This document shows, in pieces, positions 61,751-64,000 of a stretch of DNA of 64,000 nucleotides. The stretch lies in the NCBI GenBank assembly GCA_000004985.1, contig GG738900.1; one strand, given 5' to 3'. The first letter of the stretch is position 1, and each line of letters begins with the position of its first letter. The notes beneath the pieces are model-generated. The model was not told the origin of the DNA. It did no database searches and was given only the letters and a program-made list of their open reading frames with translations. This stretch comes from Naegleria gruberi (taxonomy: Eukaryota). A program made the position numbers and the translations under genes.

Positions 61751-64000
61751 TTAACTGCCATATCGAATAAGGCCAACTAGTGAAGGGCCTTGTTCTGGCT
61801 TGTGCTCATCCCGTACTTCAAATCCATGTTTTTTGAGAAAATCAACCACAGAGGAGTAACCTTCATCCTTGTAAACAAAAGTATAAATTGGAAGAGAAGC
61901 CTCATCAGACGATTTGATTATTGGCATGAGCACTTCATTGCCAAGTCCTTTCTTTCTCAATTTAGGTTTAACAGCAAGTGCCAATAGTGTCCAGTGAGGT
62001 TTATGAGGCGAGGAAATGAGAGAGTTGTGATATTCTTCCATACTCTCAGCACATTTGATACATCTGTACATGGATTTAAGTTTTCTTAATAATAGGTACG
62101 TTAATGAAATTGAAGCTTATGGGATTACTTACAGACTCTTGGGTGATTTTAAAATTCCAAGCTTTAACATTCTCCATAAACCAATACCTTTCGTATTGTA
62201 GGGATCTTGCCATATAGAAATAGCTTGAATTTCCTTGTCCTGATTGGCGAGTGAGTAGTGAATATTGACATATACTCTGCCATATTTGATTCCATATTTT
62301 AGTAATAGAGTACAGAGAAATAAGAGAGCATCTTCTGCAATCTCACTTATTGATTCCACATTAAAAATATGCTTTAAAAGAGAATTCCAATTCAGAAAGG
62401 GTGAATTATTAGTAGTGGGAATGATCAATGCTGGTGAATCCTCAGCAGTAGATGTGCTTGTGGATTTTGAGCTTCCAGTACCAGTACTGTTAGTCAATTT
62501 GGCTTCAATGAATAGCTTCTGGAGTGGATTGTTATCAGAATGTTTGACAACATTAACCAAAAATTTGGCAGCCTCCTCAATTTGACCAGGATGAATCTCT
62601 GAAACTACATTTTTACCTCGCTTATTTCTATCTCTTCTTGTTCGTGGTTTGTGAATTTTTACATAATTATAGACCTGAGTTTTGAATATGTTATTGTCGA
62701 ACAATCCATTTCCAATCTTGGCAATGTCTGATGATGCACGCGATTTGGTACTGTTACTCCTAGATTTTCTTGATTTTGTGCCTGCTGCGTTTGAGTTGGT
62801 TATTTCCTTTCCAATACTTGTTGATGTAACAAAGTTTTTAAACCATTCCTCTTCCCAAATCTTGAAAAATTCCTTGCAACACAATGCAACATGATACATA
62901 TCTTCCAATGAGAGGAAGGCAAATACATTTAACTTTAAAGAAGTTGGATTGAGAGTATTGAAACTTTGTAATGAGAGTTTGATATTATCTTCCCTAAAGT
63001 TTTCCATGATTCGATCCAAAATTTTAATCGTTTTTGCAGCACTAGGTCTGTCCCTTGGTTGATAGCTCAGTAATAGTTTGGTCAAATTGAATAAACCCCT
63101 AGAATATCCCATAGTATCGACACAGTAATGTTCAATCTCATTGAAAAAGTTTGGATTTTTCTGCAATTCCATTGACACCATCATTTGTTTTCCTTCAGCC
63201 ATCATTTGAAGAAGAATCCTATCCAAGTTTATGATTAATATTGAAGATGAATAGACAACCTACACTCCAAATGAATACATATCCGTTGACTGATCATAAA
63301 ATTCCTTGTTTAACATTTCATAGCTCATAAAATCTATTGTTCCACACTGGGTTTTAGCCATTGATAGTGTATCCAAAACTCTACTAATTCCAAAATCTCC
63401 AATCTTTAAAACTCCTGATGCGTCTATTAGAATATTTTGTGGTTTTCTAGAATTAAATTTAAAAGAATAAAAAAATTAATTTTAAATTAATTCGAAACTT
63501 ACAAATCTCGATCTATAAAAAGTATAATAAATTCCAATAATAATAGTAATAGAAATACATACGTATTATATTATTTTCATGCAAATAATTCAATCCTTCA
63601 GCAATTTGAATTGCATAATTTACTATATCCTTTTCCTTCATCTTTCTCTCCTTTTTACAAGTTGTAGTAATGAGCTTTTGCAAATCTCCTCCAGGACAAT
63701 ATTCAATACACAAACAGACATATAAAGTCTCTGCCTTTTTACTGTATTGATGAAGAAAGGCTCCCAAATACTTTATCACATTTCTATGAGAAAGATTCCG
63801 AAGTTTTTGAGCTTCATTCAAATGAATATTGGCCTCATCCAATGAAGACCATTCCATTCTCTTGATTGCTATTTGTTCTTCTGTTTTCTTGTGTTCAGCC
63901 AAAACGACTTGTCTAACATAAGTTATGATGATTAGCCATTTGATATTAATAAAACAACTTACCCTTCCGAACCTCTCCCTAAAATCTTTATAACGTAGTA
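61751..64000 (-). CDS. Ser/Thr protein kinase with C-terminal GNAT acetyltransferase-like fold (partial: the 5' end lies beyond the window); exons in window: 63964-64000+, 63563-63913, microexon 63503-63512, 63264-63446, 62133-63207, 61751-62063
   Basis: The kinase domain is reconstructed across five introns: …ILGRGSEG|GQVVLAEHKKTEEQIAIKRMEW…HRNVIKYLGAF…[35 protein letters not shown]…DMYSFGV|VILLQMMAEGKQMM…RPSA. The invariant HRDL catalytic-loop residues sit on a 10-nt microexon (ATCGAGATTT) between 50- and 56-nt introns. A ~250-aa S/N/K-rich linker follows. …GRVYVNIHYSLANQDKEIQAISIWQDP…GLWRMLKLGILKSPKS then splices (CT|GTAAGT … TGTACAG|A, 69-nt intron) in frame to …HKPHWTLLALAVKPKLRKKGLGNEVLMPII… (GNAT motif A Q/RxxGxG). 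The C-terminal fusion rests on this frame-consistent splice and is unconfirmed. Confidence 0.6.

Follow-up and report, generated by a model that had tools for sequence, protein, structure and literature searches.

Introduction

The closest described counterparts of the exon reported here are found in plants. In plant acid invertases (GH32), a 9-nt mini-exon encodes the DPN of the NDPNG catalytic motif (PMC4579127; PMC8831610). Plant microexons of up to 15 nt were catalogued by Yu et al. (2022) with MEPsuite/MEPmodeler; they are 1-15 nt long, have been conserved for a long time, encode parts of important domains, and are frequently missing from reference annotations (PMC8831610). The domains that most often contain microexons in the unicellular alga Chlamydomonas include kinase domains (PMC8831610). 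In this study, we analyzed a window of 64,000 nucleotides from the heterolobosean Naegleria gruberi (contig GG738900.1 of NCBI GenBank assembly GCA_000004985.1); all N. gruberi coordinates below are positions in this whole stretch. The minus strand of the window carries a serine/threonine kinase gene in which the His-Arg-Asp-Leu residues of the catalytic loop are supplied by a segment of only 10 nt, and the sequence comparisons described below make it very likely that this segment is a genuine internal coding exon, one that is probably spliced constitutively.

The N. gruberi microexon resembles the invertase mini-exon in that both are ultra-short and internal, encode core catalytic residues, are conserved across species and are flanked by ordinary GT-AG introns; the invertase exon is required for an active enzyme, and the same is predicted for the Naegleria exon. 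They differ in length and in what follows from it: skipping of the 9-nt invertase exon results in an in-frame deletion, whereas skipping of the 10-nt Naegleria exon results in a frameshift. The enzyme family is also different, the organisms belong to Heterolobosea and land plants, respectively, and the introns flanking the microexon in Naegleria and Willaertia are much shorter (45-95 nt). The plant microexon catalogue covers Viridiplantae only and, unlike it, the Naegleria case is built on comparative genomics rather than on RNA-seq of the species itself; a length that is not a multiple of three, very short introns and the heterolobosean host set it apart from the plant cases.

In animals, neuronal microexons are 3-27 nt in length and depend on SRRM4; for the most part they are alternative, preserve the frame (as multiples of 3), are regulated by tissue and rely on specific intronic enhancers. 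The Naegleria exon is similarly very short and lies within a structured protein domain. However, its length is not divisible by 3, so that its inclusion would be needed for any functional protein, and no regulatory element is evident. Our literature search found no report on microexons in Naegleria or Heterolobosea.

Results

A 10-nt exon supplies the HRD motif

The microexon (ATCGAGATTT, 63503-63512) lies between the exon for the kinase N-lobe (63563-63912), which ends in ...GAAAATAATATAATA-C (YLHENNII and the C of the His codon, phase 1), and the exon at 63264-63446, which starts with A-AAA-CCA-CAA-AAT, encodes what remains of the catalytic loop together with the DFG motif and the activation segment, and ends in DMYSFGV. 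Across the two junctions the codons are assembled as (C)AT-CGA-GAT-TT(A), with His from C and AT, Arg from CGA, Asp from GAT, and Leu from TT and A. Of HRDLKPxN, the microexon thus provides the Arg and Asp codons in full, including the Asp that is the catalytic base, and two thirds of each of the His and Leu codons. Intron A, upstream of it (63513-63562, 50 nt), runs from GTATGT to TTTTATAG (its end also given as CTTTTTATAG), and intron B, downstream (63447-63502, 56 nt), from GTAAGT to TTCTAG (its end also given as AATTCTAG). Both are GT-AG introns, and the splice sites of the microexon read TTTTATAG/ATCGAGATTT/GTAAGT. The predicted spliced junction is ...AATATAATAC/ATCGAGATTT/AAAACCACAA..., or TAATATAATACATCGAGATTTAAAACCACAAAAT as a longer string. 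The coordinates, sequences, intron lengths and splice sites given for the microexon in an earlier note on this DNA all match these data, on the minus strand, which that note had left implicit.

Between the anchors ENNII and KPQN, we enumerated all splice combinations with one to three GT-AG introns and a minimum intron length of 20 nt. Three solutions keep the reading frame, and HRD (in HRDLKPQN) is obtained from the microexon solution only, as the earlier note had supposed when it claimed that this exon both restores the frame and encodes HRDL. The second solution uses a GT located 4 nt past the main donor and a 112-nt intron, giving IIRIKPQN (predicted string ATAATACGTATAAAACCACAA), and the third makes a 4-nt exon by means of an AG within the microexon, giving IIHLKPQN; both candidates were rejected because their products lack HRD. 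Plain skipping of the microexon (predicted string TAATATAATACAAAACCACAA) shifts the frame to ...NNIIQNHKIF, which is followed immediately by two stops. Because of this shift into stop codons, inclusion of the microexon is, on the present gene model, obligatory for the full-length protein.

No AG-N10-GT arrangement encoding HRDL arose when the 116-nt interval between the two neighbouring exons was shuffled 200,000 times, and its analytic expectation is ~2e-6. Chance origin of the arrangement is excluded. A scan of the window detected no second copy of the microexon motif.

Conservation in Naegleria fowleri and Willaertia magna

The closest homologue of the kinase is N. fowleri FDP41_001909 (P0001), a protein of 708 aa with 60% identity. 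It is followed by Willaertia magna ABK040_000587, with 65% identity over the covered part, and then by a few environmental proteins with 39-50% identity. When its five introns are removed, the N. gruberi coding sequence aligns over its full length with the 708-aa N. fowleri protein without frameshifts, and by this alignment the gene is the orthologue of FDP41_001909.

The exon maps of the N. fowleri and W. magna orthologues were accepted only if the spliced genomic DNA translated to the deposited protein. In both of them a 10-nt exon occupies nt 392-401 of the coding sequence with phases 1 and 2, as in N. gruberi. In N. fowleri (locus L001, 2171-2180) it is ATCGAGATTT, between introns of 86 nt upstream and 95 nt downstream; in W. 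magna (locus L007, 1150-1159) it is ATCGTGATTT, between introns of 49 nt and 45 nt; the corresponding introns of N. gruberi (microexon at 63512-63503) have 50 nt and 56 nt. The microexon is identical to that of N. gruberi at 10/10 positions in N. fowleri and at 9/10 in W. magna, where the sole change, CGA to CGT, is synonymous. Across the orthologues, the 30 nt of exon on either side of the microexon have only 70-83% identity, and the flanking introns differ in length and cannot be aligned between species. A conserved 10-mer with only a synonymous change, placed between diverged introns, is the signature of a translated exon. GTAAGT is also the usual donor in the orthologue genes of N. fowleri and W. 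magna. Comparison of intron positions in kinases of related species, which the earlier note had proposed as a check, therefore returned the same 10-nt exon at the same position and in the same phases in both species.

In more distant homologues the motif is not interrupted. An uninterrupted HRDLKP is encoded by the W. magna paralogue P0010 (L003), by P0007 (L004, a 35-kb JGI metagenome contig) and by P0009 (L005, an NCBI assembly contig, and L006, a Logan contig). A second, unrelated kinase gene in the window (12700-13860, minus strand) also encodes its catalytic loop, HRDIKPENIL, contiguously. Since HRD is contiguous in the distant homologues, in the W. magna paralogue and in the second kinase of the window, the microexon is specific to this orthologue group.

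JGI metagenome contigs were scanned with AGATCGNGATTTGTAAGT. The scan gave 44 loci (L008-L051), none of which was kinase-like by tblastn; the positive controls L001 and L007 were detected. These loci were considered as further microexons and taken as chance occurrences; their flanks are unlike the AT-rich introns of the present gene.

Kinase domain and architecture of the protein

The spliced product matches the Pfam family Pkinase (PF00069) with 188.3 bits (cutoff 31.7; E = 2.2e-55) over model positions 2-257 of 263. All of the eukaryotic protein kinase motifs that were sought are present, namely GxGxxG (GRGSEG), the VAIK lysine (IAIK), the alpha-C glutamate (NEAQKL), HRDLKPxN (HRDLKPQN), DFG and the glutamate of APE (here SYE, a variant that keeps the Glu), and HRD among them requires the microexon. 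With these key motifs and the Pkinase domain, the kinase is predicted to be catalytically competent.

Among solved structures, EGFR, Aurora A, NEK1, NEK2 and NEK7 match the kinase domain with E values of 1e-27 to 1e-33, without a clear winner, and the alignment with the EGFR structure is ungapped through 'niihrdlkpqnil'. The gene is assigned here to neither the NEK nor the Aurora family. The catalytic loop of these kinases is the same as that of the Naegleria kinase, whereas overall identity is only ~30%, and they lack both the F-box-like segment and the GNAT-like C-terminus of the Naegleria protein. Matches from outside Heterolobosea in the database are a mixture of S6K-like, TKL, NEK11 and ATG1 proteins with 28-40% identity; in the protein-collection search, homologues with more than 40% identity came only from Naegleria, Willaertia and environmental contigs.

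The two additional segments are resemblances. In the N. gruberi protein, the F-box-like family PF12937 scores 16.8 bits, under its Pfam cutoff of 24.3; PF12937 is listed for the homologues P0004, P0006, P0007 and P0009, with some of the matches weak. Acetyltransf_1/7/10 remain under their Pfam cutoffs (20.7-27): the N. gruberi protein scores 17.9 and 17.4 bits, that of N. fowleri 20.1 and 19.0 bits, and these sub-threshold GNAT matches fall on the same C-terminal segment in the two species. JGI labels one homologue 'RimI-like'. The combination of kinase, F-box-like and GNAT-like (RimI-like) parts in one protein is seen in a family that includes P0001, P0004-P0007 and P0122.

Exon map of the kinase gene

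Alignment to the N. fowleri protein P0001 gave the following exons on the minus strand: >64000-63963, 63912-63563, 63512-63503, 63446-63264, 63218-62133 and 62084-61751, with intron lengths of 50, 50, 56, 45 and 48 nt from 5' to 3'. The window contains 666 codons of the kinase; ~3 further codons (MDQ) lie beyond position 64000, so that the N. gruberi protein has a length of ~669 aa. The first visible coding exon (63963-64000), which is cut by the end of the window, encodes YYVIKILGRGSEG, the glycine-rich loop, and aligns to residues 4-16 of P0001. Intron 1 (63913-63962, 50 nt, GTAAGT...GTTAG) separates it from the N-lobe exon. Downstream of the exon that ends in DMYSFGV, an intron of 45 nt (63219-63263, GTAGGT...GGATAG) occupies a position common to all three orthologues. 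The large exon that follows (62133-63218) encodes the kinase C-lobe, the F-box-like segment, a Ser-rich linker and the beginning of the C-terminal domain. The last intron (62085-62132, 48 nt, GTAAGT...TATTAAG) has a counterpart in N. fowleri at the same alignment column and in the same phase; its acceptor was selected by length agreement with N. fowleri, and two other acceptors, at 62064 and 62043, would likewise preserve the frame. The last exon (61751-62084) encodes the GNAT-like C-terminal domain and ends in ...LIRYGS, with the stop codon at 61753-61751. The 45-nt and 48-nt introns are multiples of three, and each contains an in-frame stop; their retention would therefore truncate the protein rather than lengthen it.

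Annotation of the gene

The N. fowleri gene models were produced by BRAKER1 with RNA-seq (PMC6831594), and those of W. magna by BRAKER2 with RNA-seq and Naegleria proteins (PMC11702301). The 10-nt exon is present in both of these RNA-seq-guided annotations, which means that hint-guided predictors can find it. For N. gruberi, a search of a collection of 5.8 billion proteins with a 444-aa query (the kinase and F-box part) found no entry for this kinase. The sole match with 100% identity in the collection was P0002, a prokaryote-style open reading frame (ORF) of the large exon. The same collection does contain genes that neighbour the kinase in N. gruberi: the intronless ORF at 44679-46649 (minus strand) is identical to XP_002672141.1, and two more ORFs of the window are XP_002672145.1 and XP_002672092.1. 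These identities assign the window to N. gruberi NEG-M, on a scaffold of 312 kb. Since these neighbours are present and the kinase is not, the 2010 N. gruberi reference annotation appears to have missed it. The expectation of the earlier note that gene predictors would miss the microexon is thus consistent with the lack of an N. gruberi model in the collection, but it does not hold for BRAKER with RNA-seq, which has the exon in N. fowleri and W. magna.

P0002 lies on a metagenome contig, L002 (ENA ERZ929261, k127_232496, 3066 bp), which corresponds to window positions ~63441-60376, and its ORF is 100% identical to the large exon. This identity suggests that the sample contains DNA of N. gruberi or of a very close strain. 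The prokaryote-style gene calls on L002 break the kinase gene at its introns.

Elsewhere in the window, a single ORF of 2639 aa (33069-40988, plus strand) coincides with a strong purine skew of the plus strand. The skew goes up to 0.31 for GC and to 0.43 for AT between 34 and 42 kb.

Discussion

From the anatomy of the sequence, the single splice solution that gives HRD, the conservation in orthologues with only a synonymous change and the absence of the exon from distant homologues, all of which are observed directly, we infer that N. gruberi does splice this 10-nt exon into the kinase messenger. The introns that flank it are of the ordinary short spliceosomal type, with GTAAGT/GTATGT consensus donors and T-rich acceptors ending in AG. 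The splice sites of these ~50-nt introns may be paired across each intron (intron definition), and the two introns would probably be removed one after the other, because 10 nt is too short to accommodate a 3' splice-site complex beside a downstream U1 complex. Sequential removal has been argued for plant microexons, the flanking introns of which are often detained (PMC8831610). Folding gave a minimum free energy of -14.1 kcal/mol (z = -0.07), and no RNA structure that would juxtapose the splice sites was found. In the three species, no conserved intronic element was seen around the microexon.

Some points weigh against the reading of a genuine and constitutively spliced exon. The +5 GT together with the last acceptor gives an in-frame product without HRD in all three species (IIRIKPQN in N. 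gruberi, IIRKKP.N in N. fowleri and W. magna), and a minor isoform of this kind is possible. The searched protein collection contains no transcript-derived N. gruberi protein across the junction. The W. magna model could have been guided in part by the N. fowleri protein, in which case the two annotations would not be fully independent; conservation of the microexon at the DNA level is independent of any annotation.

The alternative that survives best is that the microexon is real but facultative, with regulated skipping, or retention of a flanking intron, serving as an on/off switch of the kinase; we regard this as improbable. Such a switch could work through a frameshift and premature stop or through the in-frame form without HRD, and its trigger could be, for example, amoeba-to-flagellate differentiation or a temperature change. 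Skipping of the microexon does give immediate stops, microexons are intrinsically harder to splice and frequently have detained flanking introns in plants (PMC8831610), and transcriptomes of N. gruberi, with RNA-seq publicly available (ENA PRJEB23822), have shown both exon skipping and intron retention (PMC6142364). However, the strong consensus splice sites favour constitutive use, a conserved intronic element is absent, the introns are unalignable between species, and the fold is unremarkable, as its z-score indicates. We likewise give little credence to the more specific form of the idea, a conserved splicing switch in which inclusion is modulated during amoeba-flagellate differentiation, temperature shift or stress, either because the flanking introns compete kinetically, or because the +5 GT donor is used, or both. 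If it were true, the gene would toggle among an active kinase, a frameshifted transcript targeted for nonsense-mediated decay and an in-frame pseudokinase without HRD, and this would explain why both introns have been retained in Naegleria and Willaertia although intron turnover is high in the rest of the gene.

It is very unlikely that the main product skips the microexon in frame. In that case, the GT at 63558 would be joined to the acceptor at 63447 across the 112-nt intron, and the resulting ...NNIIRIKPQN... would make the protein a kinase-dead pseudokinase. This splice is among only three frame-preserving GT-AG solutions in N. gruberi, and N. fowleri and W. magna have equivalent ones, but a +5 GT is an automatic by-product of the GTAAGT/GTATGT donor consensus, and the donors that it creates (GTATTT, GTGTTA and GTTTAT) match the usual GTAAGT poorly. 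Conservation of the HRD-coding 10-mer and of its AG/GT flanks would be left unexplained, and the other catalytic motifs (GxGxxG, the VAIK lysine and DFG) are intact, as in an active kinase.

Hardly credible is the reading that there is no microexon, the 116 nt (63562-63447) being one intron or unspliced and the locus a frameshifted pseudogene or an untranslated remnant: a single intron does need fewer assumptions for a naive predictor, and the searched collection has no N. gruberi protein model of these exons, but all other exons are intact, the spliced coding sequence can be aligned over its whole length with the 708-aa N. fowleri orthologue, the 10-mer is kept at 10/10 and 9/10 positions (the change being synonymous) across three species while the adjacent intron sequence is not, the expectation by chance is ~2e-6, and a pseudogene would not have preserved five exact GT-AG introns together with a 2-kb open frame.

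A constitutively included 10-nt exon is thus the reading that we prefer, and the intron positions of the gene give an indication of its age. On the protein alignment, only three intron positions are common to all three orthologues: the two that flank the microexon and the one after 'FGV'. The microexon is therefore placed by this comparison at least in the ancestor of Naegleria and Willaertia. Other introns have been less stable. The Gly codon that is interrupted by intron 1 in N. gruberi also contains an intron in N. fowleri, shifted by 1 nt, and W. magna has no intron there. This intron is in phase 2 in N. gruberi (GAAGG/GTAAGT, 63962/63963) and in phase 1 in N. fowleri (GAAG/GTAGGT, L001:1620/1621), a difference that looks like a 1-nt slide of the intron within one codon. 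The orthologues of N. fowleri (L001:1501-1514) and W. magna (L007:501-514) start with a 14-nt coding exon, ATGGATCAGTATTA, and an intron comes directly after it; N. gruberi lacks an intron at this point, and TACTACGTT is contiguous there (window 63992-64000). In the W. magna paralogue P0010 there are exons of 19, 46 and 40 nt (L003:909-927, 810-855 and 1346-1385) with introns of ~36-53 nt, which indicates that very small exons are not confined to the HRD site in this clade.

We infer that the microexon originated by intron gain, two introns having come to lie 10 nt apart at the latest in the Naegleria-Willaertia ancestor; with the present sampling, gain of two introns is more parsimonious than loss elsewhere. 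Since that ancestor, the exon may have been kept under coding selection.

A conserved microexon that encodes a catalytic motif belongs to a known class with precedent in plants, and no general principle is changed by the present case. The earlier note had called the microexon extreme. That it is a real 10-nt exon carrying a catalytic motif is supported by our analysis, whereas the adjective must be tempered, since plants have exons of up to 15 nt with catalytic or DNA-binding motifs. What the present case adds is an ultra-short exon with the catalytic base of a kinase in a deep-branching and relatively intron-poor protist lineage, the Heterolobosea. For splicing, it suggests that the spliceosome of Naegleria copes with an exon of 10 nt that has ~50-nt introns on either side. 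For intron evolution, it suggests that two introns only 10 nt apart have persisted since before the split of Naegleria and Willaertia, while other introns of the same gene came and went. For annotation, the microexon seems to be the reason why an entire multi-domain kinase gene is missing from the N. gruberi reference, and re-annotation that is aware of microexons or projected from orthologues would recover this kinase and perhaps other genes. The finding is therefore relevant mainly to annotation and to intron evolution in Discoba.

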